Origin: Gammaproteobacteria bacterium
GTDB lineage: Bacteria; Pseudomonadota; Gammaproteobacteria; JBCCGL01
NCBI GenBank assembly: GCA_965277715.1
Contig: OZ255836.1
Location: 3,808,001 to 3,872,000, forward strand
DNA: 64,000 nt
Direction of reading: 5' to 3'
Shown: positions 15,817 to 61,141 of the stretch, piece by piece
Numbering within the stretch: the stretch's first letter is position 1
Layout of the letters: each line of letters begins with the position of its first letter
Notes under the pieces: generated by a model
The model's input: only the letters and a program-made list of their open reading frames with translations
Told to the model about the DNA's origin: nothing
Database searches by the model: none
Position numbers and translations under genes: made by a program

Positions 15817-18000
15817 ATGGATGTCTCTTCAATTCTCGACTCACTCAACCCGGCACAGCGCGAAGCGGTTGCCGCTCCCCCCGGCCCCATTCTGGTACAG
15901 GCGGGGGCCGGTAGCGGTAAAACCCGCGTATTAACCCACCGTATTGCCTGGCTTAATAGCGTCGAGGGGGTTTCACCCTTTTCCGTGCTGGCGGTCACCT
16001 TTACCAACAAGGCGGCCAGCGAAATGCGCGCCCGCGTCGAGGCGATGCTGGGTATGCCACTTGGGCCGATGTGGATTGGTACGTTTCACGGCCTGGCGCA
16101 CCGCTTACTGCGCCAGCACTGGCGGGAAGCCAGATTACAGCAGGGCTTTCAAATTCTCGATGCCGATGACCAGTTGCGCGTGGTCAAGCGGGTACTGCGT
16201 GGCCTGGCGCTCGATGAAACCCGCTGGCCTCCCAAACAGGCTGTGTGGTGGATCAACGCACGCAAAGACGAAGGATTGCGCGCCAAGCACCTGGAAGATC
16301 ATAACGACCCCATTCGCCGCCAATACATCCGCATTTATTCGGCCTATGAAACCAGTTGTGAACAGAGTAGCGCCGTCGACTTTGCCGAGCTGTTGTTGCG
16401 GGCGCTCGAACTGCTGCGCGATAACACCGGGCTGCTCGATCACTACCGAAAACGCTTTCAGCATATTCTGGTTGACGAATTTCAGGATACCAACGCAATT
16501 CAATATGCCTGGCTGCGCCTATTGGCGGGTGGTGCGGGCAACTTGTTTGCCGTGGGCGATGACGACCAGTCGATCTACAGTTGGCGTGGTGCCAAAGTGG
16601 AGAATATCCTCAATTTTGAAAAAGACTTTCCCGGCGCGCAGCTTATCCAGCTCGAACAAAACTACCGCTCGACCCACAATATCCTCTCAGCGGCCAATAC
16701 CTTGATTGCCAACAATATGGAACGCATCGGTAAGAACCTGTGGACAGAAGACACCAGTGGTGACCCAATAACGCGCTATACCGCCTATAACGAAATGGAT
16801 GAGGCGCGCTTTGTGGTCGAGCGCATTGCGCAATGGGTGGAGAGTGGGGGGCGGCGTGATGAGTGCGCTATCCTGTACCGTTCGAATGCCCAGTCAAGAG
16901 TACTGGAAGGCATGTTGCTGGATGCCGGAATGCCCTACCGTGTGTATGGCGGGTTGCGCTTTTTTGAACGGGCGGAAATCAAAGATGCTCTGGCCTATTT
17001 GCGCCTGCTGGGCAATGAAAATGACGATGTATCGTTTGAGCGTGTGGTCAACCACCCACCGCGTGGTATCGGTGAAAAAACCGTTAGCCAGATTCGCGAA
17101 GCGGCGCGTACCGGGCAGGTATCGATGTGGATTGCAGCACAGCAATTGATCTCGACTAATGCACTGTCTGCACGTGCGGCAAATGCAATCAACACATTTT
17201 TGGCATTAATACCCAGCTTGCGTGATACCTGCCACGAACTGCCACTGGCTGAAGTGATTGTCCACTGTGTTGAACACAGCGGTCTGCGCGGCTACTTCTC
17301 GCGGGATAAATCTGAAAAAGGCCAGTCACGCATCGAAAACCTGGACGAACTCGCCAGCGCCATCAATACCCGCACCAGCGCCTTAGACCACCAGCAGGAT
17401 CTACCCGAGGAAATGTCTGAGCTGGATCAGTTCCTCGCCAACGCTGCACTGGACGCCGGTGACGCCCAGGGGCAGGCCTGGGAGGACTGCGTGCAGCTAA
17501 TGACCCTGCATTCAGCCAAAGGGCTGGAGTTTGCCGTGGTGTTTTTAACCGGCATGGAAGAGGGCTTGTTTCCCGGCCAGCGATCAATCGAAGAAGAGGG
17601 GCGTATGCAGGAAGAGCGACGCCTGTGCTATGTCGGTATCACCCGCGCACGAAAAACGCTGTACCTGACCCTGGCAGAACAGCGCCGTCTGTATGGCCAG
17701 GAACATTACAGCATGGCCTCGCGCTTTCTGGGGGAAATCCCCGCAGAACTTATTCAGGATGTTCGCCCGCGTGCCTTCGTCACCCGGCCAACGTACCAGC
17801 GCGCCCACGCCGAGGCATTTATTGCCGGGCCTGCCCCGGAGGGGGTCAGTGTCGGCCAGCGGGTTAATCACGCCAAATTTGGCGAGGGTATGGTCACCGG
17901 GTTTGAAGGGCAGGGTAGCCATGCCCGCGTGCAGGTACATTTTGCCAATGCCGGTAGCAAGTGGCTGGTATTGGCTTATGCGAAGTTGGAAATACTTTAG
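15817..18000 (+). CDS. uvrD: DNA helicase II
   Basis: AGAGSGKTRVLTHRIAW, VTFTNKAA, VDEFQDTN, QNYRST, EERRLCYVGITRA, C-terminal Tudor-like HAKFGEG. Confidence 0.97.
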   Translation: MDVSSILDSLNPAQREAVAAPPGPILVQAGAGSGKTRVLTHRIAWLNSVEGVSPFSVLAVTFTNKAASEMRARVEAMLGMPLGPMWIGTFHGLAHRLLRQHWREARLQQGFQILDADDQLRVVKRVLRGLALDETRWPPKQAVWWINARKDEGLRAKHLEDHNDPIRRQYIRIYSAYETSCEQSSAVDFAELLLRALELLRDNTGLLDHYRKRFQHILVDEFQDTNAIQYAWLRLLAGGAGNLFAVGDDDQSIYSWRGAKVENILNFEKDFPGAQLIQLEQNYRSTHNILSAANTLIANNMERIGKNLWTEDTSGDPITRYTAYNEMDEARFVVERIAQWVESGGRRDECAILYRSNAQSRVLEGMLLDAGMPYRVYGGLRFFERAEIKDALAYLRLLGNENDDVSFERVVNHPPRGIGEKTVSQIREAARTGQVSMWIAAQQLISTNALSARAANAINTFLALIPSLRDTCHELPLAEVIVHCVEHSGLRGYFSRDKSEKGQSRIENLDELASAINTRTSALDHQQDLPEEMSELDQFLANAALDAGDAQGQAWEDCVQLMTLHSAKGLEFAVVFLTGMEEGLFPGQRSIEEEGRMQEERRLCYVGITRARKTLYLTLAEQRRLYGQEHYSMASRFLGEIPAELIQDVRPRAFVTRPTYQRAHAEAFIAGPAPEGVSVGQRVNHAKFGEGMVTGFEGQGSHARVQVHFANAGSKWLVLAYAKLEIL

Positions 18001-43257: not shown

Positions 43258-46137
43258 TTAAGGTGTGTGTGTTATAGGGCGGGTCGCTTGGGTGGCGGCG
43301 TTACCAGCGGCATCCGCTACGTCGGCGGTTACCGTCGTGGCAGCAGGCAGAGCTTGAACGTTCAGTGCAGGTACAGTAACACTCCAGGCGCCATTGTTTA
43401 CCGGGCCTGTGTAGTTAACGCCATTCAAACCGACAGTTACTGTCTGTCCATTTTCTGCAGTGGAAAGACCAGAAATAACAATATCATTATCATCTTCGGT
43501 GGCATTGATGTCATCATTACCTGCAATAACAGCAATTGAAATGGTCGGGGGTGTTGTGTCGGGAAGTATATGTGTTAAAAAGCGAACTGCCTGGGTGGCG
43601 GCGTTACCAGAAACATCTGTCACATCGGCTGTTACCGTCGTGGCAGCAGGCAAAGCCTGGGCGTCGAGTGCAGGTACAGTAACGCTCCAGGCGCCATTGT
43701 TTACCGTGCCTGTGTAGTTAACGCCATTTAACCCGACAGTTACCATTCGTCCGTTTTCTGCATTGGAAGTACCAGCAATGATAATATCATTATCATCTTC
43801 GGTGGTATCAATTTCATTATTACCTGCAATAACAGCAATTGAAATGGTCGGGGGTGTTGTATCGGGAGGAGTGCCGGTAAATAGCCATGTGATAGTTTCG
43901 GTAGTGTTGTTGGGAAAGGTAACCAACAACTCTAATCTTACATTGGTTGACGTCACATTACCGAGCGTTAGGTTAAATCCGCCAGTTGGGCCATCTGCAC
44001 ACAAGTTATTGGTGTTTAATGTGATAGCTGTTAGGCTATTAGTTATATCAGCACCGGTTGAACTAAAAGCCAACGTCGTTCCAAAGGGTAAGGGATTGCC
44101 CATGTAAGCTGTGCCCACTGTAGTGGTGCAAGTATCTGTTGAAGATGGCGACGACAGTATATTGTTAGAGTTAACGCCTAAGTTACCATCAGAGAGGAAC
44201 AACCCACTAAAGGTTGTTCCAGTACCAATAGCGGTGATAGGACCTGAAGGATTAGGGAAAGTACCAAGTACAGCAGTAGTCACTCGATTGAGGGGCATGG
44301 CAATAATGATTTGTCTTCCGACAAAAATCGTTTCCGGTACACCAACCATATTAGAGCTGCATACTGCATTGGGATATCCTTCTTGCAAGCAAGGGCCATT
44401 CCAGAAATCATCTCCATTAGCGTCATAGGTTGAATTGTTATTAATATCCCTAAACGGTTCTCCTGAGTCATACGTTCTGTTTTCATTTTCATCGGCGTAC
44501 AGCTCGGGTAAATCATCAAAGACTATAGGTCTATCATCAGTTGGGTTTGTTGCATTGTCAGCGCCAGAATCTTCAAGTACACCATTACCATTGCGATCAA
44601 TAAAACGCTCGATACCGGGTGTGAACGCCAATAAAGTAACCCGATTATCCGGTGGTCTGGTACCTGAACTTCGCCATGTCGTTGAACACTGTCCATTGGT
44701 AGTAGTACAGAACGAGGGGCTAATCAGCCCGATTTCGCCCGTGATAAAGCTGATTAATGTGCCATCTGGCACCTGGTTACCAAACTGATCGGTTGCAATA
44801 ACACCTAATGTGACCGCTATTCCATCGGTGTTAAATGCTTGTGCAGGGCGGTTAGACCCTATTGATATAGAAAAATTATCAGATACAACCCGTCCTGTTG
44901 AAACGGCAATACCGATCGATGAACCCTGTAACTGAGAGGTTGGGTGGGTCGCGATAACTTGCAGTGAAGTGGCCAGGGTACCACTTTGTACAACCGTGCT
45001 GACATCGCCACTGGCATTAGATAAACCGCTCTCTCTATTGATGGCTATGCGGGCGCCGCCGGTATTGGGAGAGGTGGAGGTGAGGGTGAAATTAACCATC
45101 TGATTAATGACAGGAAGGCCGGAACTGTTTAATACCCTAAAAGTGACTGTAGAGGTTTGTGATCCATTGCCCAGTCCAGATATGCTTAACTGTGTAGGGG
45201 TTGCAGAAATAAACCTCACTTCGCCAATAGCGGAAGCCGTATGGTTTATAGTAACAGTGGCCGTTGCACCGCTTTCTCCAACTCTGGCAGTAATAATATC
45301 ATTCCCTACGCAACCATTTGCAGCGTAGTTAACCGAGGCTGTACCACTGGTTGTCGTGATGAGATTACTGTTGAGTGTTGCTGTTCCGTCAGTTAAGCAC
45401 TGCGAGGAAAATGAAACTGTCTGTGATGAAGTAATTAGGCTGTTGCTATTATTAGCATCGACCAGACTCAATGAGATAACGCTACTGCTGGTGGGTGGGT
45501 TTAAATTGGGGTTCAGGGTGGTCAGGCTGGCGGCAAGCTGACCCGACACAAAATTATTGCCTGTGCCATTGCCAATTACTGCGACAGTTGCTGCTGCAGA
45601 GACAGTGAGGGTGACAGTCGCTGTGAGTGTTGTGCCACCAGAGACTACACTGGCTGTCACGATATCGTTACCGACACAGCCAGCGGCGGTGTAGACGACC
45701 GAGGCGACACCTGTGGTTGTGGTAACGCTGGGGTTATCTAAATTTGCTGTATTGCTGGTAATACAAGGAGAACTAAAAGTAACAATTTGTGATGGTGAGG
45801 TGATAGCCACACCGTTATTATTAACTAGGTTGGCGGTAATCGTTGTACTGGCCCCAGCTGCCAAACTGGTTTGGGTTGCTGCCAGCGCGCCTGCAGTAAA
45901 GCCGGCACCTGAGCCATTACCGATTCGCAATGTGGTTGTCCCTGAGGTGGGTGTCCCTGCTACTGGGGTAGTTGATCCTGTGTTGTTATCACTGAATCCA
46001 CTCGTGCCACCGCCACCACCACCACCGCCACAAGCAGTTAGGCATAACATCAAAAAAAACAGTGCGGTGTAACGCAAAGCAGCAGTGGTATCGGTCAATA
46101 CGGTCTTCAGATTGACCTTGATTGGGTAGGTTATCAT
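43258..46137 (-). CDS. Large Ig-like-domain surface lipoprotein (invasin/Big-1-like)
   Basis: Hydrophobic signal with LTAC lipobox, poly-Gly linker, Thr/Ser-rich beta repeats, DxNxNG-type motifs, two C-terminal 101-aa repeats. Confidence 0.85.
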   Translation of the reverse strand: MITYPIKVNLKTVLTDTTAALRYTALFFLMLCLTACGGGGGGGGTSGFSDNNTGSTTPVAGTPTSGTTTLRIGNGSGAGFTAGALAATQTSLAAGASTTITANLVNNNGVAITSPSQIVTFSSPCITSNTANLDNPSVTTTTGVASVVYTAAGCVGNDIVTASVVSGGTTLTATVTLTVSAAATVAVIGNGTGNNFVSGQLAASLTTLNPNLNPPTSSSVISLSLVDANNSNSLITSSQTVSFSSQCLTDGTATLNSNLITTTSGTASVNYAANGCVGNDIITARVGESGATATVTINHTASAIGEVRFISATPTQLSISGLGNGSQTSTVTFRVLNSSGLPVINQMVNFTLTSTSPNTGGARIAINRESGLSNASGDVSTVVQSGTLATSLQVIATHPTSQLQGSSIGIAVSTGRVVSDNFSISIGSNRPAQAFNTDGIAVTLGVIATDQFGNQVPDGTLISFITGEIGLISPSFCTTTNGQCSTTWRSSGTRPPDNRVTLLAFTPGIERFIDRNGNGVLEDSGADNATNPTDDRPIVFDDLPELYADENENRTYDSGEPFRDINNNSTYDANGDDFWNGPCLQEGYPNAVCSSNMVGVPETIFVGRQIIIAMPLNRVTTAVLGTFPNPSGPITAIGTGTTFSGLFLSDGNLGVNSNNILSSPSSTDTCTTTVGTAYMGNPLPFGTTLAFSSTGADITNSLTAITLNTNNLCADGPTGGFNLTLGNVTSTNVRLELLVTFPNNTTETITWLFTGTPPDTTPPTISIAVIAGNNEIDTTEDDNDIIIAGTSNAENGRMVTVGLNGVNYTGTVNNGAWSVTVPALDAQALPAATTVTADVTDVSGNAATQAVRFLTHILPDTTPPTISIAVIAGNDDINATEDDNDIVISGLSTAENGQTVTVGLNGVNYTGPVNNGAWSVTVPALNVQALPAATTVTADVADAAGNAATQATRPITHTP
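43261..43866 (-). repeat. Tandem 303-bp intragenic duplication
   Basis: Units 43564-43866 and 43261-43563 both encode PDTTPPTISIAVIAGN..I..TEDDNDI.I.G...VTVGLNGVNYTG.VNNGAWSVTVPAL..QALPAATTVTADV.D..GNAATQA. Confidence 0.92.
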
Positions 46138-50370: not shown

Positions 50371-50509
50371 TGGCGTTATCTTCTGGTTTTCTATGGGCGT
50401 GGTTTGAGTGCATCATTGTAATCGATCAATTTCATTGAAAACAGCTTCACTGAAGGTTGGCATTGGCCACGCCGCTCTCCATTCACCTCTTATTCGGGAT
50501 AGAAAACTG

Positions 50510-51397
50510 ATGATAAAAAACCCTGTGCCCTGGCCAAACAATGCCAAATGTGCGGTTGCCTTCACCTTCGATATGGATGCCGATAGCCTGATTCATTTGG
50601 AACACCCAAAAACGGCGCACCGGAGAGTCTCGGCTATTTCCATGTTGCGCTATGGCCCGGAAGTGGCGATTGCCCGCATCCTCGAAACCTACCGTGAATA
50701 CAATATGCAGCAAACTTTTTACGTACCCGCCTGGTGTATTGAACAGTACACCGATGCGGTAAAAGCAATGGTCGATGGCGGGCACGAAGTCGCCCACCAC
50801 GGCTATATCCACGAAAACCCCAATGTCCTGCCGCCGGATGAAGAAAGGCACTGGTTACAGCGTGGCATCAGCGTTATCGAAAATGTGACGGGTCAGCGCC
50901 CGCGTGGGTGGCGGGCGCCGCTCTACAATTTTTCAGATGCCTCCGTCGATTTACTGATCGACGAAGGATTTCGTTACGACGCCTCCCTAATGGGTGATGA
51001 CGTACCGTATATATTGAAAACCGATAAAGGTCAGTTAATCGAACTACCTTCCTACTGGGGTATGGATGACTGGCCACAGTTTGTGCATTCGATCGATTTA
51101 AATTACACGATGCCGCTTCAGTCCCCATCGCGGGGGATGGATGTATTCCGCGAAGAATTCGATTCCATGTACAAACACGGTGGGTTGTGGGTCACCGTTT
51201 GGCATCCGTTTGCCTCCGGGCGATTGGCGCGCTGGGAAAAAGTCATCGAACTGATTGACTATATGAACAGCAAAGGTGATGTGTGGTTTGCGCGTATGGA
51301 AGACATTGCCGCGCATGTTCAAGCATGCATTGATGACGGCAGCTATGTGCCGCGTGTCGACGCCCTGCTGTATTATTCAGGGCCAGTGGAAATATAA
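50510..51397 (+). CDS. Polysaccharide deacetylase family (CE4/PuuE-like) protein
   Basis: WPNNAKCAVAFTFDMD, HEVAHHGYIHE, GWRAP, YDASLMGDD, HPFASGR; start re-set. Confidence 0.9.
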   Translation: MIKNPVPWPNNAKCAVAFTFDMDADSLIHLEHPKTAHRRVSAISMLRYGPEVAIARILETYREYNMQQTFYVPAWCIEQYTDAVKAMVDGGHEVAHHGYIHENPNVLPPDEERHWLQRGISVIENVTGQRPRGWRAPLYNFSDASVDLLIDEGFRYDASLMGDDVPYILKTDKGQLIELPSYWGMDDWPQFVHSIDLNYTMPLQSPSRGMDVFREEFDSMYKHGGLWVTVWHPFASGRLARWEKVIELIDYMNSKGDVWFARMEDIAAHVQACIDDGSYVPRVDALLYYSGPVEI

Positions 51398-51429
51398 GTA
51401 TTTTTAATTCAACTTTAACTTATACAGGC

Positions 51430-51457
51430 TTGCCTTAATCGATTTAGGGTCTACAAT
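51430..51457 (+). promoter_or_regulatory. Candidate sigma70 promoter of the cas operon
   Basis: TTGCCT-N16-TACAAT about 55 bp upstream of cas1. Confidence 0.45.
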
Positions 51458-51510
51458 TTAAAGTAACAGGCCGTTGAAGCCTGATTATCATTTTAAAAAA
51501 AGGCAAATAA

Positions 51511-52470
51511 ATGGAACAACTGACGGATTTAAAGGCGATACTGCACTCCAAGCGAGCGAATATCTATTACCTGGAAAAATGCCGTGTAATGCAAAAAGAC
51601 GGCAGGGTGCTTTACCTCACCGAGGCGAAAAATGAAAACCAGTATTGGAATATCCCTATTGCCAATACCACGGTAATCTTATTAGGCACGGGTACATCAA
51701 TCACGCAAGCGGCGGTAAGAATGCTGGCGTCGGCGGGGGTGTTGATCGGTTTTAGTGGTAGCGGTGCGACACCGCTGTTGGCCGCCAGTGAGGTTGAATG
51801 GCTATCGCCCCAAAGTGAATACCGCCCCACTGAGTATATTCAGGGTTGGATGTCATTTTGGTTTGATGGTGAAAAACGCCTGCAAGCCGCCAAGCAGCTT
51901 CAACAGGCGCGTATTCAGTTCTTAGCGGGTGTCTGGTCAAAAGATAAAGACCTGAAAGCAGAGGGTTTTTACCTCGATGATAAGGATATTACCCATGCCT
52001 TCAAAGACATCACCACTAAGATTGATGCCGCCCCTAAAGTCAGTGACTTATTGAATACCGAAGCCCTGCTAACCAAACAACTGTACAAAATTGCAGCAAA
52101 CCGCACGCAGTACGGTGATTTTGTACGCGAGCGGGAGGCAGAAGACACCGCCAATGCCTTTCTCAATCACGGCAACTACCTGGCGTATGGGTTGGCTGCC
52201 AGCACTTTATGGGTGCTTGGCATCCCTCACGGTTTTGCGGTTATGCACGGTAAAACCCGGCGAGGTGCATTGGTATTCGATGTCGCGGACTTGATTAAAG
52301 ATGCACTGGTGTTGCCCTGGGCGTTTATCTGTGCCAGAGAAAAAGCGACGGAGCAGGAATTTCGACAGCAGTGCCTGCAAGCGTTTACCCAGCACAAGGC
52401 GTTGGATTTTATGTTTGAAGCGGTGAAAAACATCGCCTTAAAAGCCGCTTGGGAAGGTGACACCCCATGA
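51511..52470 (+). CDS. cas1: Type I-F Cas1
   Basis: ILHSKRANIYYLEKCRV, YWNIPIANTT, SEYRPTEY, HGNYLAYG, HGKTRRGALVFDVADLIKD. Confidence 0.97.
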   Translation: MEQLTDLKAILHSKRANIYYLEKCRVMQKDGRVLYLTEAKNENQYWNIPIANTTVILLGTGTSITQAAVRMLASAGVLIGFSGSGATPLLAASEVEWLSPQSEYRPTEYIQGWMSFWFDGEKRLQAAKQLQQARIQFLAGVWSKDKDLKAEGFYLDDKDITHAFKDITTKIDAAPKVSDLLNTEALLTKQLYKIAANRTQYGDFVREREAEDTANAFLNHGNYLAYGLAASTLWVLGIPHGFAVMHGKTRRGALVFDVADLIKDALVLPWAFICAREKATEQEFRQQCLQAFTQHKALDFMFEAVKNIALKAAWEGDTP

Positions 52471-55424
52471 TGGTTACCCTTGTTTCTCAGTGTGAGAAAA
52501 AAGCATTGCGTAAAACCCGCAGAGTGCTGGATGCCTTTGCCAATCGCATTGGGGACAATACCTGGCAGACGGTGATTACCCAAGAGGGTTTGCTGGCAGT
52601 TAAAAAATTGCTGCGCAAGACCGCCAGCAAAAATACAGCGGTGAGCTGCCACTGGATTCGTAGCCGCGCCCGCAGTGACTTGGTGTGGGTGGTGGGGGAT
52701 AAAAGCAAGTTTAGTGTAAACGGAATTGTACCTGTAAATTTCACGGCAAAAGAGGTGCCAATGGATATAGTAACTGACAAACCGCGTAAAGGTGTTGATT
52801 ATGCAAATACACACTTACAACGCTTAGATTATCATCTGTATGCGGTAGGGTTTATTGCACAGTATTTGTATTTAAGTTTTTATCCTGATAAAAAACAAAA
52901 CGCTAAAGCTGCTTTTTTTGCAGGTTGTTTACATGATATTGGCAAGCTTGATCCAAGCTTTCAGAATTGGGTTACTAAGTTAAAAAATAGGGCTTACTTT
53001 GCTGAAGATGGGCAGCATATAGACGAAGCAAAATTCAGTTTTGATAAACACCCTAGGCACAACGAAATTTCAGTGCTTGTTTATGAACTGTTAGATGATG
53101 TTTCGCTGAAAACAATAGATTCACAAAATAAGAAATCGATTAGACATGCTATTTATTGGCATCATGCTAAGCCCTTCAGGCAAAAGGGAGGGTTTGAGAC
53201 CTATGCCGATATTTATAAGAAATTGGATAAAGCTCTTAAAGGTGAAGCATGGTCTCAGGTGATTGAGAAGTCCTTAGAAGTATTAGCCCGTATTGGAAAG
53301 ATAGATTGTAGATATCGTGGTATTGAGTCCAGCCACTTAGAGAAGATTTACCCAAAGAAAATAGATGCCGATAAGTTGAATTATATTGAATCCAAATTGT
53401 TGCCAAAATACAAGATGTATGGCCTTTCTGAAGAAATAGCAGATTACAAAGAAGAATCAAAATTTAATGCTACTAACAATGAAATTCGATCTTTTTTAAT
53501 TACAGCAGATCGGTGGGTATCCAGCATGTCAGCGCAAGAGTTGGTAAGCGCTATTGATGAGAAGACATTGGCAGAGTTCGCTGATAATCAACTCGAAAGC
53601 GAAGTAATCATAGAAAGTAATTTAGAAAGCGAAATAGTCGCATGTATAAGTAAATTCTCCAACAGTGAACGAAGCGAAAAACAAACGCTAGTCGCCAATG
53701 CACTAGTTGAAAATAGCAATCATGTTAGTGTATTAGCAGGTGCTGCAGGTTGTGGAAAAACAAAAATAGCACTGGACTGGGCGAGGCTAGGTAAATCACA
53801 ACAAATACTTTGGATTTGTCCTCGCGTACAAATATGTCAAGGGTTATTTGCCGAATTGGCAAGTGATGTCTACCTTCCTACTACTAACATTGAGCTCTAT
53901 ACAGGTGAATTTAAGTGTACAAATACCTATCAAAACATAACTCCTGAATTAGATTATTTTACTGGTGATATTGTTATCACCACGATTGATCAGGTTCTCA
54001 GTATGGTTATAAGCCATACCAAAGCGGACAGGTTGCTTAATTATTTAACCGCGCATGTGGTGTTTGATGAATACCATGAATATATTAATATGCCAGCATT
54101 TAATTTGTTATTCGCAGAGCTCGTGGCTTCAAAGCAGAGTTTAGGTGGTAGTACAAAAACTCTGTTGGTTTCAGCTACACCACACTATGCCTATCTCGAA
54201 AATATACTGGATTTAGATGCTGAATATGATGTAGAAGAAATGCCATCGTTTAATCAAAGTCGATATAAATTTGAGTTCTGTGTTTTTTGTGAAAAGGATC
54301 ATAATGATAAAAATCCCTTGTATCATAAGCAAAAAATTAACAGTTTTGTTATTAGTAATACTGCTACAACTGCTCAGAAAAGTTTTATTCTTAACCAACA
54401 TAATGAAAATGCAATTTTACTTCATTCAAAGTATAAAAAAAGCGATAAAAAGAAATTATTTGAACGCGTATTTGAGTCATTTAGGCGTGATGGAAATAAG
54501 CAATATAAAATATTAAGGAGTGGTCCTATAGTGCAGGCGTCCTTGAATATTAGTTGTGATTATATGGTATCTGAAATAACCACTGCAGAAAACAATTTAC
54601 AACGTTTAGGGCGCTTAGATCGTTTTGGGGAAAACGAACACACCAACCAATATGTGATTGCTGTTCCTGACTCATTTCATAATGGTAAGAATAGCGGGGC
54701 TACTGCCAGGTTTCTTAATTCAACCAGTAGTCTTGCAGCGACTAGAGCGTGGTATAACTATTTACAGGAGGTAAGTGATTTAGGAGAAAAGATTTTTTTA
54801 CTGGCTGATATTTATCATATTTACAAAGATTTTTATAGTTTGGGTTCGCCTGCCTATAAAGAGATAGTCAGCGACTTACTCAAAGCAATGAAAGAGAGCG
54901 TTAATCTAATAACAGCTAAGGTATCAGAACCTCAAGTCATTGCGAGATCGAAAAAAAGCGCTGCACAAAGAAAAAAAATTAGTAAGAATTCATTGCGTGG
55001 TGATAATCGTTTTATACAGATGGCGATATGTGATGTATCGTTGGTTTATAGTCCTCAAGTTCTTGATCAGTATGCTTACGATATTCCTACATCAGAATCA
55101 GTTGATGTTGATAATATAACCGGTTCTTTAAGAAGGCTTATTTCGGATGGATTACTCAGTTATGCTGCGCAAAAACATGGTCGCATAGATGAAACCAGTA
55201 TAATTAAGGATATACCAGCAAATAGAATGAAAGTTAGAGAAACCTTGTTAGAGGGATATGCAAGAGATCCTGAGTACCCTATTTTTGTAAGTTATACGCC
55301 TAGTGAGTTAGATCAGAAGCTTGGAGAACACACTGCGCATGATGAAGCAATTTACTATGGAGTGTGTGAGAAGCAACCCATAGGCAGTATTTCAATGAAA
55401 CAGTTACTTAACCCTGAGGAGTAA
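52467..55424 (+). CDS. cas3: Cas2-Cas3 fusion (HD nuclease plus SF2 helicase), I-F variant type
   Basis: N-terminal Cas2 (VSQCEKKAL..TRRVLDAFA.RIGD.TWQT.IT.EGL, TAVSCHWIR), HD (LHDIGK), Walker A GAAGCGKT, DEYH, SAT, QRLGRLDR. Confidence 0.95.
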   Translation: MMVTLVSQCEKKALRKTRRVLDAFANRIGDNTWQTVITQEGLLAVKKLLRKTASKNTAVSCHWIRSRARSDLVWVVGDKSKFSVNGIVPVNFTAKEVPMDIVTDKPRKGVDYANTHLQRLDYHLYAVGFIAQYLYLSFYPDKKQNAKAAFFAGCLHDIGKLDPSFQNWVTKLKNRAYFAEDGQHIDEAKFSFDKHPRHNEISVLVYELLDDVSLKTIDSQNKKSIRHAIYWHHAKPFRQKGGFETYADIYKKLDKALKGEAWSQVIEKSLEVLARIGKIDCRYRGIESSHLEKIYPKKIDADKLNYIESKLLPKYKMYGLSEEIADYKEESKFNATNNEIRSFLITADRWVSSMSAQELVSAIDEKTLAEFADNQLESEVIIESNLESEIVACISKFSNSERSEKQTLVANALVENSNHVSVLAGAAGCGKTKIALDWARLGKSQQILWICPRVQICQGLFAELASDVYLPTTNIELYTGEFKCTNTYQNITPELDYFTGDIVITTIDQVLSMVISHTKADRLLNYLTAHVVFDEYHEYINMPAFNLLFAELVASKQSLGGSTKTLLVSATPHYAYLENILDLDAEYDVEEMPSFNQSRYKFEFCVFCEKDHNDKNPLYHKQKINSFVISNTATTAQKSFILNQHNENAILLHSKYKKSDKKKLFERVFESFRRDGNKQYKILRSGPIVQASLNISCDYMVSEITTAENNLQRLGRLDRFGENEHTNQYVIAVPDSFHNGKNSGATARFLNSTSSLAATRAWYNYLQEVSDLGEKIFLLADIYHIYKDFYSLGSPAYKEIVSDLLKAMKESVNLITAKVSEPQVIARSKKSAAQRKKISKNSLRGDNRFIQMAICDVSLVYSPQVLDQYAYDIPTSESVDVDNITGSLRRLISDGLLSYAAQKHGRIDETSIIKDIPANRMKVRETLLEGYARDPEYPIFVSYTPSELDQKLGEHTAHDEAIYYGVCEKQPIGSISMKQLLNPEE

Positions 55425-55427
55425 AGA

Positions 55428-56381
55428 ATGAAAAAAGTAACAGGCATTAAAAGTGTTGATTTCAGAGTTACAGCTAGAGGTCATGGCGTTGTAAACTGGA
55501 ATGGCCCCACGACTCTTAGTAACAGCGAAGGTAAAATGATGAATAATCATACGCTGCCAAAGCTGCGGGGTTATACCAATCTAACCGGTAAAATTAAAGA
55601 TGAAACGGGTTTCAAATATAAAAAAGAGGCTACCGATATAAACTTTAAGGAGAACCCTCTTTATATCAGTCAAAATTGTATACGGCATCATTTGTTTAGA
55701 GATCACGCGTTTGACCTTCATTATGCAGGTGAGAAAAATTTAACGCCTGTACTCGCATCTATTACTGGTTTGATTCGAGGGTATGTTGTCCCAGTTAGCC
55801 AGTGTAAACGCACTAGCCCATTATTGATGGAGGATTTTGTAGACCAATTGGGAAATGGTAATTTTGAACAGTTTGGTCAAGCGGGTGAGCGAGATGATTC
55901 TTCATTTTTTTCAAAAACCACTTTTGGTGATACCGAGTATCTATCTTATGGTTCGATTAGCATTGAACAGTTGCAATTTATCTCACTCGACAAAAAATTT
56001 GATCGGGCCGCAATGTTGATAAAAGACGGTGAAGGTGAAAAAGTTGCTGAAGCTGTTCAGGCATTTATTCAATCTTTGGACGAAGAACTAAACCCTCAAG
56101 CGACCTTTCATAAAAACTACGTGAGAAAAGGAACTATTTTTGAAGAAGGTGAAGTTGGAGTTCTCCTTAATCAGGATGCTATGCAGGCGCTCGTCAGTTA
56201 TACCATCAAAGCTATATCTGAGCTTTCAATACGCCAAGCAAAATCTTATATGTATGTAGACACGGTTGAAGTCGACTATAACAATAGTCCAAAAATGATG
56301 AGGATTAAACGCTCAGATGGACAGGTATCTCCAGATCCTGAATCGCCTTTCGCTATTTATTTTGAAGAAAAATCGGTGTAA
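55428..56381 (+). CDS. cas7fv: Cas7fv backbone protein
   Basis: 317 aa; [10 protein letters not shown]...[31 protein letters not shown] resemble Shewanella I-Fv Cas7; directly after cas3 with no cas8f. Confidence 0.88.
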
Positions 56382-56386
56382 GTATA

Positions 56387-57394
56387 ATGAGGATAAAAAT
56401 TGAATATGAGTCGTCGTGGCGAAATTCTTTTTTAGATGGAAGCAATAATGAATCTTTGCCAAAAAAAGGTAGGAATTTTGTTGGTTCGATGACAGCATTG
56501 AAAAAAGAGGAAAATTATTTGTCTCGTGAAATTACTTTGTCGACAGTGATGGGCATTTTGAACCGATTGATCGGTGACCAGCGAAAACTATACCAATCAA
56601 GGAGTTCTCCCGATTATTATTTTTATGAAATAGAAAAATTAGTTGAGTTTGAGGATAAACCATATTTTATTAACAATGAGGTGATTTATATTAGAAATAT
56701 GAAAGGTAGTACCGATCAAAATGCTTTCACCGGTATGATAAAAGTAAATGATCCCATTTTTATTTCTGGCTATTCAAGTCAGTTCTGGGGCACCTTGCAA
56801 TTAGATTTTGAGGAATTATGTCAGTTTATTATTAACGATAATTTTTTGATTGAGAGATTGAAAAAAACTGACCCAATTTTGATGATTAGTCGCCTGGAGT
56901 CTCTGGACAAAGAAAAAGCAGTTGAGCTAACCGGCCATGTAAAGTTAGCCCATGAAAAGCTAAACTTGATGTTTCCAGAACAAAATTACTTAAACCCTAA
57001 GGGCTTGATAAAGCCAATAATGTTTTATTGCTCTGCGTTGTATCTTCAACTTGCTAGACTTGAAAAACGTTTCGATATGAGAAGTGCCAAAACAAAATCT
57101 GGTGGTATTGGTGGTATATCCAAACGAGGTTTTACTAAAAAAGATTTTATGAATTGTTATACCACGGGAGGTAAAAAAATTATTTGGGGTAACCCATATA
57201 TGAAAAAAGAAAGATTGAAAGGAGAAGGAGAGGTAACATCATTGCTGACTAAAGCAAGTGGGCTATTAACCATCAGAATTGATGTTGATAAAAGCTGGGC
57301 GAGAAACTTTAAAGACCTAATTGAGACTGCTGGGGTATCCAGTTTCTACCTGGGTAAAAAAGGACTTGCTTATGTTAGCGATATTAGAATTTAG
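56387..57394 (+). CDS. cas5fv: Cas5fv
   Basis: 335 aa; [50 protein letters not shown] (Gly-rich RAMP loop). Confidence 0.88.
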
Positions 57395-57406
57395 AGAGAA
57401 TCGAAT

Positions 57407-57967
57407 ATGAACTATTATTTTGATATAAAACTTAATCCAGATTCTGAAATGCCACTTAATCAATTATTAAATGTGGTGTATACCAAATTTCATAAGGCAT
57501 TGTATGATCTGTCATCACAAAGTATTGGTGTAAGCTTTCCTCGATATAATATTATTTTGGGAAATGTGGTTCGAGTACATGGTGATGCTAAAGCGCTTGA
57601 AAATTTGCGAGAAATAAATTGGTTAGGTGGTATAAGTGGTTACTGTGATGTTATCACTATCAAACAAGTACCTCACAACGTACAGTATCGCACTATTAGC
57701 CGTGTACAGCCTAATATGAGTCTATCCGATTTACGGCGTCTTACAAAACGACACTCAATCTCTGAGGGTGTTGTTAAAGAGTATAAAGCCAAGATGTTCA
57801 GCAAAGGACTAGATAATCCATTTGTTGAGTTGGATAGTGGTTCAAGTGGAAATAAATACCGGCGTTATTTCCAGTTTGGAGTGTTACTTGACGAACCTAT
57901 ACAGGGAATATTTGACCAGTTTGGCCTTAGTAAAACAGCTACAGTACCTTGGTTCCCAGCAGGTTGA
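57407..57967 (+). CDS. cas6f: Cas6f (Csy4) crRNA endoribonuclease
   Basis: KFHKAL (catalytic His position), IGVSFP, LGNVVRVHG, FDQFGLSKTATVPWF. Confidence 0.95.
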   Translation: MNYYFDIKLNPDSEMPLNQLLNVVYTKFHKALYDLSSQSIGVSFPRYNIILGNVVRVHGDAKALENLREINWLGGISGYCDVITIKQVPHNVQYRTISRVQPNMSLSDLRRLTKRHSISEGVVKEYKAKMFSKGLDNPFVELDSGSSGNKYRRYFQFGVLLDEPIQGIFDQFGLSKTATVPWFPAG

Positions 57968-58080
57968 TGCCAGCATCCAGTTCCATAAACTAGGTGTAGT
58001 ATTCTTAATCTGATTACGGATTACCTCATTTTTCTGTCAGTGTACGTCTGCACAGTTGGCAAGGTAAGTCGATTGAATTT

Positions 58081-58243
58081 ATGTGGCAAAGGCGTTTAAC
58101 TTTTCCATATGCCTATGTAAAAAGCTTATCCACTGGGAATATGATAAGGATATATTGATCACGGTGTATTGTGTGATACACCGCAAGAAGGTGTATTCTC
58201 CAGCTATGGCCTAAGCAAGACAGCAACGATACCCTGGTTTTAA
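58081..58243 (+). pseudogene. cas6f: C-terminal relic of a second, divergent cas6f
   Basis: RRLTFPYAYVKSLSTGNMIRIY, frameshift in an ATATAT run, IDHGVLCDTPQEGVFSSYGLSKTATIPWF*. Confidence 0.88.
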
Positions 58244-58374
58244 CCTTCTTTTTTTATGTTCTTTAAAAATTTAATAAGATTAATAAGTTATAGAATCACT
58301 AAATTTCATAGGTATTTTTGTTATTTGAGGTTAAGTGTTTATTGTGGCTAATTTTTTTTGCTTTATATTCGTGG
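58244..58374 (+). promoter_or_regulatory. Type I-F CRISPR leader
   Basis: AT-rich, 131 bp; CCTTCTTTTTTT...CTTTAAAAAT, IHF-like ATTAATAAGTTA, T-tract just before the repeat. Confidence 0.8.
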
Positions 58375-58402
58375 GTGCACTGCCGTACAGGTAGCACTAA
58401 TC
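58375..58402 (+). CRISPR. Single degenerate type I-F repeat; no spacer or second repeat
   Basis: GTGCACTGCCGTACAGGTAGCACTAATC versus canonical GTTCACTGCCGTACAGGCAGCTTAGAAA (19 of the first 21 match, 3' end diverged). Confidence 0.82.
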
Positions 58403-58489
58403 AACGGGTACAACTAAATACGTACTTAGCCGACTAAAACTTCTATAGTAATACGCTATAAAGCAATCTGAAGCACTGAAAAAATACCT

Positions 58490-59458
58490 ATGCAGACCCC
58501 ATCTACCAGCACGCCTAAAAAAATCCCAGTAGGTATCAGCGCCTGTCTACTCGGTGATCCGGTGCGTTATAACGGTGGCCACAAACGCTCAACCTTATGC
58601 CAGGAAGTGTTTACCGAGTACTTTGATTACGTTACCTTTTGCCCGGAAGTCAGTGCCGGGTTTGGGGTGCCAAGGCCCACCATGCGCCTGGTCGGTGACC
58701 CCAGCGCGCCGGTTTTAACCTATGTAAAAAACAGCGATGAAGACCTTAGTGAGCAGTTGCGCGCCGGGTTTACCGCGCAGCTCGAACGCTGTGTCGATCT
58801 CGATGGTTATATTCTGATGAAGAATTCACCGAGCTGCGGTATGGCGCGCATCAAGGTTTATCAAGCCTCTGGGGCGCCGCATCAAACCAAATCCCGTGGT
58901 TTGTTTGCCGATGCCTTGATAAAACGTTACCCACAGATGCCGATTGAGGAAGAAGGTCGGTTGAACGATACGCACCTTCGGGAGAATTTTGTTATGCGGG
59001 TGTACGCACACCATCGCTTTCGCCACGATGTGCTGGCGGTGCGCCGCTATAAGGCGTTGCTGGATTATCACAGTGGCTATAAATACCTGTTGATGGCGCA
59101 TAGCCAAACCGCCTATCGGGCGTTAGGGAAAATGCTGGCATCGTCCAGCGCCTTGCCCATTGATACCGTGTTGCACGATTATTTTGTCGATTTTATGGCG
59201 GCGATTGCGACACCCGCCAGCCGGGCCGGGCATTGTAATGTCTTGCAGCATATCCTGGGCTACCTGAAAAAATCGGTATCCGGGCAAGCGCGGCAGGATA
59301 TCGATCAGGTGATTGCCCGTTATCGGCGTGGTGAGGTTAGCCTGGCCACGCCACTGGCGTTACTTAACCACTATATTAAGCAGTCGGGTAGTGATTATAT
59401 TCGTGCGCAACGCTACTTGGCACCGCACCCGCCGTCGCTAGAGGCTTGTCGGTTTTAA
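58490..59458 (+). CDS. DUF523/DUF1722 (YbgA, 2-thiouracil desulfidase-like) protein
   Basis: GISACLLGDPVRYNGGH, CPEV, KNSPSCG, EEEGRLND, HSGYKYLLMAHS, NVLQHILGYLK. Confidence 0.92.
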   Translation: MQTPSTSTPKKIPVGISACLLGDPVRYNGGHKRSTLCQEVFTEYFDYVTFCPEVSAGFGVPRPTMRLVGDPSAPVLTYVKNSDEDLSEQLRAGFTAQLERCVDLDGYILMKNSPSCGMARIKVYQASGAPHQTKSRGLFADALIKRYPQMPIEEEGRLNDTHLRENFVMRVYAHHRFRHDVLAVRRYKALLDYHSGYKYLLMAHSQTAYRALGKMLASSSALPIDTVLHDYFVDFMAAIATPASRAGHCNVLQHILGYLKKSVSGQARQDIDQVIARYRRGEVSLATPLALLNHYIKQSGSDYIRAQRYLAPHPPSLEACRF

Positions 59459-59536
59459 GCGCGTTATTTATTTTTAAGGCAGTCGACGATATTCTCATAT
59501 TGAACGCTATCGCACACCGCTCCTGAATAACACGAT

Positions 59537-61141
59537 TTAATCGTGTCGCGCTAACATCATATCCGCCGCTTTCTCGGCAATCATAATCGTCGGTGCATTG
59601 GTATTGCCAGAGGTGATATTCGGCATAATCGAGGCATCGGCGATACGCAGCCCCTGAATGCCGTGCACGCGCAGTTGGGCATCGACTACCGCGCTGTTAT
59701 CGCCGCCCATTTTGCAGGTGCTGGTGGGGTGGTAGATGGTCTCGGCGATGTTTTTTGCGCCTTCGAGAATCTCTGCATCGCTTTGCTTATCCATCCCCGG
59801 TCGGAACTCTTCGGCAACATAGTGTTGCATGGTGGGGGAGTGGGCAATCGCCCGGGATTTTTTAATGCAGGCAATCGCCGTATTGCGGTCTAGTTCAGTG
59901 GATAGGTAGTTGGGCTGAATGCTTGGGTATTCACGCGGGTTGGCCGAGACCAGGTTGATGCTGCCACGGCTCTCGGGGCGCAATTGGCAAATCGAGGCGG
60001 TAAAAGCAGAGAACGGGTGCAAACCCTCTCCGGGGGAGTCGGCGCTGAGGGGTTGCATATGGAATTGAATATCCGGGCGCATCACCTCGGGTGTCGAGTT
60101 GCAAAAAACGTATACCTGGCTGGCCGCCATGCTCAGCGGGCCGGTGCGGGTGAGGATGTATTGCACCCCTACACGCATTTTTTGCAATACATTACTCAGT
60201 TCGTCATTGAGGGTCGGCGTGTGGGTTTTGTACACCGCACGAAATTGCAGGTGATCCTGCAGGTTTTGCCCTACCCCCGGTAACGCCTTAACCACCTCGA
60301 TACCCTGGCCACGCAACAACTCCGCGTCACCAACCCCAGATAGTTGTAGCAGGTGAGGGGAGTTGATGGCGCCCGCCGATAACACCACTTCACGGGTGCA
60401 ATCGAAGCGGTGTTTGCCACCATCCCGGATAACCTCAACACCGCAGGCACGCGTGCCGTCAAAAAGGATTCTATCGACTTGTGTGTTGGTTAATACACGC
60501 AGGTTGCTGCGTTTTTTCGCTGGGTTTAAATACCCTTTGGCGGTGCTCCAGCGGCGCCCTTTATGGGCGGTTAGTTGGTAGTAGCCGACGCCTTCCTGGG
60601 TGGCGCCGTTACAGTCGTTATTTCTGGGAATACCCACCTCTACTGCGCCTTCGATAAAGGCATCACAGATGGGCCGGGTAAAACCGATATTGGAGACTTT
60701 GAGCGGGCCGCCGACACCGTGGAATTCACTCGCGCCACGCGCCTGGTCTTCGGCTTTTTTGAAGTAGGGCAGTACATCATCAAACCCCCAGCCGGGGTTA
60801 CCTGCGTCACGCCAGTCGTCGTAGTCCTGCACTTGTCCGCGTATATAGAGCAGGCCATTGATCGAGCTGGATCCGCCGAGCACTTTGCCGCGTGGCCACT
60901 TTAATGAACGGTTGTTAATGCCGGGGTCTGGCTGGGTTTTGTAACACCAGTCCATACCGGGGTTGTGGATGGTCTTGAAGTAGCCAACGGGCATATGAAT
61001 CCACGGGCTGGTGTCTTTGCCACCGGCTTCAATCAGCAGCACGCGGTTAGTTGAGCTTGCCGACAGGCGGTTGGCCAACACGCAACCGGCAGAACCTGCA
61101 CCGACGATAATGAAATCGTATTGTTCGTTGTGGTTACTCAT
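59537..61141 (-). CDS. GMC family FAD oxidoreductase (choline dehydrogenase-like)
   Basis: VGAGSAGCVLANRLS, PRGKVLGGSSSING, GQNLQDH, YHPTSTCKMG, GNTNAPTIMIAEK. Confidence 0.93.
   Translation of the reverse strand: MSNHNEQYDFIIVGAGSAGCVLANRLSASSTNRVLLIEAGGKDTSPWIHMPVGYFKTIHNPGMDWCYKTQPDPGINNRSLKWPRGKVLGGSSSINGLLYIRGQVQDYDDWRDAGNPGWGFDDVLPYFKKAEDQARGASEFHGVGGPLKVSNIGFTRPICDAFIEGAVEVGIPRNNDCNGATQEGVGYYQLTAHKGRRWSTAKGYLNPAKKRSNLRVLTNTQVDRILFDGTRACGVEVIRDGGKHRFDCTREVVLSAGAINSPHLLQLSGVGDAELLRGQGIEVVKALPGVGQNLQDHLQFRAVYKTHTPTLNDELSNVLQKMRVGVQYILTRTGPLSMAASQVYVFCNSTPEVMRPDIQFHMQPLSADSPGEGLHPFSAFTASICQLRPESRGSINLVSANPREYPSIQPNYLSTELDRNTAIACIKKSRAIAHSPTMQHYVAEEFRPGMDKQSDAEILEGAKNIAETIYHPTSTCKMGGDNSAVVDAQLRVHGIQGLRIADASIMPNITSGNTNAPTIMIAEKAADMMLARHD

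Follow-up and report, generated by a model that had tools for sequence, protein, structure and literature searches.

A type I-F leader and a single terminal-type repeat beside an I-F2 cas operon: a probable case of CRISPR array collapse accompanied by effector exchange

Within a 64,000-nt stretch of DNA from a sponge-sample gammaproteobacterium (the window), a type I-F2 cas operon is followed by a type I-F leader and only one repeat. The locus is probably a collapsed, vestigial array that retains an intact I-F leader and nothing of its repeats except the degenerate terminal one, in a strain whose effector genes were swapped. The evidence comes from the organization of the locus itself (Table 1), from related I-F loci, and from contigs of other strains and samples.

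Table 1. Features of the CRISPR-Cas island, in order along the window
Feature	Position	Strand	Details
cas1 (type I-F Cas1f)	51511..52470	+	TIGR03637, 480.9 bits, positions 1-306 of 307; PF01867 also
cas2-3, chimeric	52467..55424	+	Cas2 (1-79), HD, DEAD and C-terminal domains
cas7fv (317 aa)	55428..56381	+	NF040577, 467.5 bits (cut-off 200)
cas5fv (335 aa)	56387..57394	+	PF20158 (Cas5fv helical domain), E 3.1e-67
cas6f (Csy4) of the imported I-F2 module	57407..57967	+	PF09618, E 3.2e-54; TIGR02563
Imported flank 3' of the new cas6f (118 nt)	57968..58085	+	Terminator-like hairpin 58053-58075
Remnant of the former resident cas6f (about the last 52 codons, 158 nt)	58086..58243	+	2-nt deletion at 58149/58150
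Type I-F CRISPR leader (131 nt)	58244..58374	+	69-78% identity to leaders of 18/82 I-F loci
Solitary terminal-type repeat GTGCACTGCCGTACAGGTAGCACTAATC	58375..58402	+	Hairpin 58380-58394
Trailer up to the DUF523/DUF1722 gene (87 nt)	58403..58489	+	Non-array sequence
Host gene, 2-thiouracil desulfurase-like (DUF523) + DUF1722	58490..59458	+	PF04463, PF08349

Every cas gene is full-length relative to its family model. The spacing between the genes is only 3-12 nt, which leaves no space for cas8f or any other large subunit and thus assigns the locus to type I-F2 (I-Fv), with Cas7fv and Cas5fv replacing Cas8f, Cas5f and Cas7f alongside Cas6f, Cas1 and a Cas2-3 fusion. The original prediction had described the Cas machinery as intact; this stands as far as the full-length family matches go, but not in the sense of a canonical I-F1 system, since the operon is of the I-F2/I-Fv kind and lacks Cas8f. 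The closest solved relative of its Cas6f is 5o6u_B (E 5.2e-56; annotated 'Csy4 family'), which belongs to what we take to be the I-Fv Cascade from Shewanella. The I-F Cas3f model covers residues 1-97 only of the window's Cas2-3 in the family search. Elsewhere in the window, a 303-nt tandem repeat (1.9 copies, 87% match) occupies 43289-43867 within a 959-aa minus-strand ORF (43258-46137).

To place the region downstream of the operon, 57968-58489 was compared by blastn with 82 fetched I-F loci, which gave matches to the leaders of 18. Of these, 15 alignments end precisely at 58395, nucleotide 21 of the repeat, and none extends further. When the window was aligned with 16 leaders, picked from the blastn matches plus locus L001, invariant columns appeared in the G.TCTTTAA, AGTTA, TAAG and TTG.TG blocks and in a run of T. 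The segment is AT-rich, carries these conserved blocks and lies directly 5' of the first repeat, so that the typical I-F leader named in the original prediction is borne out by both the blastn matches and the alignment. A sigma-70-like promoter was not found under our scan rule in 57900-58600, and an Rfam search of 57300-58700 returned nothing at E ≤1. Inspection by eye suggests that TTGTGG-16 nt-TATATT in the window might correspond to the conserved leader blocks TTGTAA-16 nt-TATACT.

The repeat begins 408 nt beyond cas6f, after the leader, and between the cas genes and a host gene common to conspecific strains. Its hairpin pairs CTGCC (58380-58384) with GGTAG (58390-58394) through one G-U pair and is present in both the MFE and the centroid fold, with C6 (58380) and G20 (58394) pairing in canonical register at the stem base; an alternative fold with an extended GUGC/GCAC stem moves that base. 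Relative to the first repeats of 16 loci, all of which are canonical and end in TTAGAA(A/G), the window repeat departs from them at nucleotides 3 and 18 and at six of the seven final nucleotides. It therefore matches the consensus at 19 of its first 21 positions and at one of its last seven, and both the retained hairpin and the diverged 3' handle reported earlier were found as described. A consensus-like 5' part with its hairpin, a degenerate 3' end and non-array DNA beyond together characterize a terminal repeat. All five related arrays whose end falls within a locus finish with a repeat whose 3' part deviates, and the same pattern of degenerate terminal repeats appears in excerpts of the review PMC8047081.

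Several scans bear on whether a second repeat exists. With up to three mismatches, the 5' part of the repeat (21 nt) occurs once in the window and in 0 of 100 shuffles, and the hairpin motif likewise occurs once in the 64 kb. A scan of both strands of the window for the canonical 28-mer (≤8 substitutions) returned the repeat site at seven substitutions and three other sites at eight, none of which passed a scan for 5-bp hairpins flanked by GT..CA; that scan retained, across the window, the repeat site and one unrelated place at 17260. A tandem array with a ~60-nt period was not found in the window. The mismatch, hairpin and tandem-repeat scans thus agree, across all 64 kb, with the earlier statement that no second repeat lies at the expected ~60-bp period, and the locus lacks what defines a functional CRISPR array, namely at least two repeats around a spacer.

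We then asked how common such a state is among relatives. A Cas6f scan of genome contigs returned only two relatives (56-57% identity), and a Cas1 scan of metagenomes returned 80 loci, the best at 82% and none conspecific. A Cas6f match was present in 37 loci, 34 of them with at least 400 nt downstream. Of these 34, 32 have 2-67 repeats after cas6f, and the other two have one repeat at which the contig ends, as in L001, whose contig breaks off within the second repeat. The window's arrangement, in which a lone repeat gives way to other DNA, occurs in 0 of the 34 related loci.

The same loci yielded observations on the segment between cas6f and the array. Among the 34 that extend 400 nt or more beyond cas6f, 21 have their first repeat 0.5-1.8 kb away from that gene. 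Inserts at this place (L019:6970-7485, L037:8039-8455, L039:7374-7622, L041:16671-17825 and L001:5424-6245) include OGFr_N-like, ParD-like and Phd/YefM antitoxin genes and an AAA+DUF4143 ATPase, and one of them carries what appears by eye to be a frameshifted KilA-N gene.

Four sets of public-run data (X6, X8, X1 and X2) were available as contigs rather than reads, with X1 and X2 compared through alignment tables. X6 is probably the window's own source and so is not independent; X8 is another sample from that study. One 15,016-nt contig of X6 matches 50400-60400 with 0 differences. In X8, one contig (56652-58247; depth 37.7) spans the new cas6f, the 118-nt flank, the cas6f remnant and the start of the leader, and another (58281-58592; depth 20.3) spans the leader, the repeat and the DUF523 gene, each with 0 differences. 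Within the I-F2 module, X8 has stretches of low or zero cover, and X1 and X2 have no cover at all; only the bridged joints from X8 serve as evidence. Depth in the X8 flanks is 56-61, and the lower depths of the junction and repeat contigs suggest a mixed population in which other forms of the locus coexist. The solitary-repeat form was seen in two samples of one study only.

These contigs bear directly on the idea, raised in the original prediction, that a multi-spacer array was collapsed by the assembler. Repeats can indeed break or collapse assemblies, and X6 probably represents the window's own data. Yet the contigs of both X6 and X8 bridge the leader, the repeat and the DUF523 gene without a difference. 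Moreover, unique 32-nt spacers prevent collapse when an assembler uses words longer than the 28-nt repeat, and the contigs of these runs were presumably built with 31-letter words. The terminal-type 3' end and the one-spacer relative described below also fit a truly minimal array. We consider an assembly artefact extremely unlikely: where a normal multi-spacer array was to be looked for, the contigs of X6 and X8 show the solitary repeat instead.

The most informative comparison is with X1, a sponge metagenome from another study that contains a strain ~99% identical to the window strain. Its 12,862-nt contig shows 25 differences from the window over 50400-52582 and 34 over 58375-60400, and carries 7336 other letters in place of window positions 52583-58085. 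X2, from a third study, has 7275 other letters between 52696 and 58383 and rejoins the window only at 58383. In both strains cas1 is ~99% identical to that of the window, and the DUF523/DUF1722 gene, at the right edge of the CRISPR-Cas island, is present at ~98% identity. For 50400-52582 in X1, 14 of the 25 differences are listed individually; among seven listed for cas1, four are synonymous and three non-synonymous, too few to judge selection. Behind its leader, X1 has repeat nucleotides 1-21, then 37 letters starting TTAAAAA, then the repeat again, with a period of 60. Its array is thus repeat, 32-nt spacer, repeat, and the orthologue of the window's repeat is the second and last.

The repeats suggest a direction for this change. 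Insertion of a spacer at a lone terminal repeat should copy that repeat, including its 3' end. The first repeat of X1 ends in TTAAAAA, unlike the terminal repeat, so the one-spacer state is not a fresh insertion into a lone repeat, and the change would be a loss in the window and not a gain in X1. This weighs against the alternative that the single repeat is the original state, in which the locus never held spacers and X1 gained one later. A leader with one repeat does suffice for acquisition in laboratory systems, according to work cited in the excerpted text of PMC8047081, but the solitary repeat is also built like a terminal one, and we regard an original single-repeat state as improbable. 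Array collapse by recombination between repeats, one of several options listed in the original prediction, fits best, given the terminal-repeat anatomy and a ~99%-identical strain, X1, that keeps repeat-spacer-repeat.

The sequence immediately 5' of the leader adds a second line of evidence, which the original prediction overlooked: a remnant of another cas6f. Its 58151-58243 portion encodes YIDHGVLCDTPQEGVFSSYGLSKTATIPWF followed by a stop codon, a Cas6f C-terminus unlike that of the operon's own Cas6f, and tblastn gave a 30-aa match here (YIDHGVL...GLSKTATIPWF and the stop) to three Cas6f proteins at E 9e-13 to 2e-12. The upstream frame (58081-58158) ends ...STGNMIRIY; in X1, two extra letters after 58149 join this first frame to the second (58151-58243), which restores a single cas6f reading frame. 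In L002 and similar relatives the leader begins directly after the cas6f stop codon, and the leader and repeat of the window therefore belong to the older, now truncated cas6f. The 118-nt flank that separates the new cas6f from this remnant is absent from the X1 and X2 contigs, with X1 homology resuming at 58086, and had no blastn match in the 82 loci. Judged from its length and from the cas6f remnant, the 7.3 kb that X1 carries in this place is probably an I-F1 effector module. We also noted by eye a perfect 8-bp inverted repeat, CGGTGTAT ... ATACACCG, with a 6-nt loop, at 58162-58183 inside the remnant.

The left break lies within cas2-3. Homology to the window ends at 52582 in X1 and at 52696 in X2, which places the junction between these positions (codons 39-77), where it coincides with a step in GC content from ~0.50 in cas1 and the start of cas2-3 to ~0.36 near 52600-52800; GC rises again near 58400 and reaches ~0.52 at the DUF523/DUF1722 gene. 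Across I-F1-type and I-F2 members of the 82 loci, both Cas1 (75-82% identity to the window's) and the Cas2 domain (58-92%) are conserved. For the remainder of Cas2-3, by contrast, matches come solely from loci of the I-F2 kind, at 33-64% identity (19 loci with Cas7fv, plus seven partial ones whose contigs end before Cas7fv could show). The cas1 gene is part of the resident adaptation module, the start of cas2-3 with its Cas2 domain is likewise resident, and the remainder was imported with the I-F2 module. The conservation of Cas1 and of the Cas2 domain across I-F1 and I-F2 makes this region a ready site for homologous crossover.

The boundary between cas1 and cas2-3 is itself variable. In many I-F loci an extra gene is wedged between the two (L009:10972-11952, L010:2740-3753, L012:1287-2393, L030:3051-4031 and L060:10974-11837; also L022 and L074), with products of Bro-N, RhuM+Fic, DUF4172+Fic, ORF6N or KilA-N type. 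At the same junction, X2 has 374 extra letters between 52427 and 52467.

Taken together, these data suggest a sequence of events. The ancestor would have been a resident I-F1-type locus with cas1, cas2-3, ~7 kb of effector genes, cas6f, the leader and a very short array. Its effector module would have been replaced by a low-GC I-F2 module comprising most of cas2-3, cas7fv, cas5fv, cas6f and 118 nt beyond, with the left crossover in the highly conserved Cas2-coding start of cas2-3 and an illegitimate right junction inside the old cas6f, of which the final 158 nt would have stayed as a scar. After this swap, or already before it, the first repeat and the spacer would have been lost through recombination or slippage in the 21 nt common to the repeats, leaving the terminal repeat. 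It is established that effector and adaptation modules undergo modular exchange. Here, the truncated old cas6f and the chimeric cas2-3 indicate that one species swapped an effector module internally and retained its adaptation module and leader, which makes the locus a concrete, testable case of modular cas evolution.

With one repeat and no spacer, the collapsed locus itself would supply no guide. Whether guides might come from elsewhere, as the original prediction had suggested, depends on a second leader. In all four runs, the stretch 58153-58371, which holds the cas6f end and the leader, has a diverged counterpart (33-37 differences) on a separate contig of 275-316 nt. The loose end of this contig enters a canonical repeat in X6 and X8; in X2 the contig aligns through repeat nucleotide 21 (to 58395), and in X1 the matches listed show no continuation past 58371. 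It is covered 1.15-1.9 times as deeply as the locus. The I-F2 effector could thus receive crRNAs from a second I-F array, with canonical repeats, in the same genome, and the same canonical repeat does serve the I-F2 relatives L001 and L002. Such an array could also refill the empty one by cross-priming; the available text of PMC7056967 shows cross-priming into a lone last repeat in the I-F system of L. pneumophila. The variation in depth ratio between runs, however, fits a co-occurring organism equally well, and sponge microbiomes share many co-occurring symbionts. The second leader may accordingly belong to this bacterium, as a further locus, or to an organism that co-occurs with it. We treat a supply of guides in trans as possible though doubtful; it is compatible with collapse and differs from it only in what the locus can do at present.

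This second copy of the old cas6f end and leader is ~84% identical to the window. Among the positions listed, it agrees with the X1 orthologue against the window at five substitutions and one insertion, which suggests that the leader and remnant of the window are gathering private changes.

What refilling would achieve depends on the repeat that survived. The Cas5-type subunit of I-F complexes reads the 5' handle of the crRNA. New spacers inserted by Cas1-Cas2-3 would copy the degenerate 3' end of the lone repeat, and the resulting crRNAs would bear CACUAAUC as their 5' handle in place of CUUAGAAA. Unless guides arrive from a compatible array elsewhere, the collapsed locus, with the degenerate 3' end copied and the 5' handle wrong, is likely a dead end and not a clean reset. 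The label 'reset system' in the original prediction is therefore doubtful, as any refilled array would copy the degenerate handle. More generally, collapse need not be reversible: a repeat that survives in a badly degenerate state would hand on a faulty 5' handle when the array is refilled. In Legionella, the refilled array adopted the last repeat's sequence (PMC7056967, in the part available).

A broader reading joins these elements. The window could be a natural snapshot of a 'collapse and repopulate' cycle, coupled to a swap from an I-F1-type to an I-F2 effector within one sponge-associated species through crossover in the Cas2 segment, in which the resident Cas1, leader and array remnant were retained, and with refilling through cross-priming by a co-resident I-F array. 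We offer this combination as speculation that is rather unlikely to hold in full. If true, it would mean that adaptation modules and arrays form a shared chassis that takes on different I-F effectors within populations.

The retained hairpin raises the further alternative that the solitary repeat is a working RNA element: a Cas6f site that yields a guide like CreA/CreR, an endogenous decoy like Racr, or a place at which the DUF523/DUF1722 mRNA is processed. Two points would favor this: the stem base still has C6 and G20, and the trailer, which ends at the gene 87 nt downstream, holds no terminator-like site. C6 and G20 are reported as crucial for Cas6f binding in the accessible sections of PMC10651486, and their retention in the hairpin suggests that Cas6f may still bind and cut after 58394. 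Complementarity to possible targets was assessed for three flanking segments (58403-58434, 58396-58427 and 58343-58374) against the 64-kb window. In ungapped comparison these 32-mers match the window at 19-20 of 32 positions, with shuffle means of 20.0-20.6 and a shuffle maximum of 22; no PAM-proximal seed exceeds nine specified nucleotides, and none has a CC PAM. The check that had been proposed earlier for 58403-58435, made here with 58403-58434, thus gave nothing above chance within the 64-kb window, and PAM-flanked partial complementarity to a nearby promoter, which marks CreA/CreR guides, was not found there. The repeat also stands where an array belongs, behind a leader. With target complementarity at chance level and with a position and anatomy that differ from the known cases, a regulatory or processing role appears highly improbable.

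Comparison with those known cases leads to the same view. CreA and CreR elements (bioRxiv 10.64898/2026.06.02.729485; PMC9458426; bioRxiv 10.1101/2023.03.10.532045), as far as the portions of these sources at hand describe them, are hairpin-keeping degenerate repeats inside a cas locus, as here. The known I-F CreA consists of two repeat-like units around a 20-26-nt guide, its first unit keeps the 5' handle, and it lies between cas2-3 and csy1 (excerpts of bioRxiv 10.64898/2026.06.02.729485). Neither CTTAGAAA nor CTAAGAAA, the handles of such a first unit, is present in the window's repeat, whose 3' end is CACTAATC. On the same partial descriptions, the two units, the canonical handle, the cas2-3/csy1 position and a CC-flanked nearby target are all features without a counterpart in the window.

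Elements closer to this description did appear among the fetched loci. In L075:13930-14070 (minus strand), an I-F2 locus, a unit ending TTAGAAA is followed by a 19-nt guide-like segment and a second unit, and a CC-flanked near-match to the guide-like segment lies ~60 nt upstream. Degenerate repeat-like units on the strand opposite to the cas genes also occur in L020 and L032 (pairs) and in L046, L061 and L071 (single). All lie ~3.5-5 kb after the cas1 start, which by distance fits the gap between cas2-3 and the next gene, a placement checked by sequence in L075 only. L075-type elements resemble the CreTA/CreR mini-arrays described for the I-F system of P. aeruginosa in the partial texts cited above.

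The likeness to Racrs is limited in a similar way. In the available portions of PMC10651486, these are single I-F-like repeats without a proper 5' handle that form a hairpin of the Cas6f type whose stem base has C6 and G20, and the window repeat has the same features in its predicted fold. If transcribed, it could by analogy with Racr (PMC10651486, in part) give a guideless product bound to Cas6f. The same portions describe Racrs, however, as solitary repeats that lie on mobile elements (viruses or plasmids), apart from cas genes, and have their own promoter, whereas the window repeat has a genuine leader and neighbors cas6f within an island of the chromosome. Its surroundings showed no phage or plasmid context.

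In the genes that it now carries, the locus most resembles the I-Fv system of Shewanella putrefaciens CN-32, whose gene order we take to be like that of the window. Both have the effector set cas7fv, cas5fv and cas6f beside cas1 and cas2-3, and neither has a large subunit (PMC4937334, in the part available). The Shewanella system has a working array, whereas the window has none. In addition, the window proteins have only 54-81% identity to the nearest fetched I-F2 loci, and, unlike in the Shewanella I-Fv system, cas2-3 is chimeric with a resident adaptation module linked to I-F1.

In the state of its array, the closest parallel is Legionella pneumophila str. Lens. This is not a new kind of system, since collapse and refilling have already been published for Legionella, as the accessible portions of that literature make clear. 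Collapse to the last repeat by recombination between first and last repeats was modelled and engineered in the L. pneumophila I-F system (PMC7056967), and such collapse of I-F arrays is also discussed in the review PMC8047081; both are cited here from excerpts. In that strain, too, an I-F leader and the last repeat alone remain beside intact cas genes, and a second I-F array may act in trans, as is possible in the window (PMC7056967; PMC8047081, in the same excerpts). Natural collapse in Legionella was, in the text of PMC7056967 available, deduced only from repeat polymorphisms, and the empty state was engineered, whereas the empty state of the window comes from natural samples. The last repeats differ as well: that of Legionella is one nucleotide off its consensus in the same source, and that of the window departs at six of the seven last nucleotides and at two more. 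Relative to the parts of these sources at hand, what is new is an empty state seen directly beside a one-spacer sister strain and together with the scar of a swap from I-F1-like to I-F2. To a collapse of the Legionella type, the window thus adds an exchange of the effector, from I-F1-like to I-F2.
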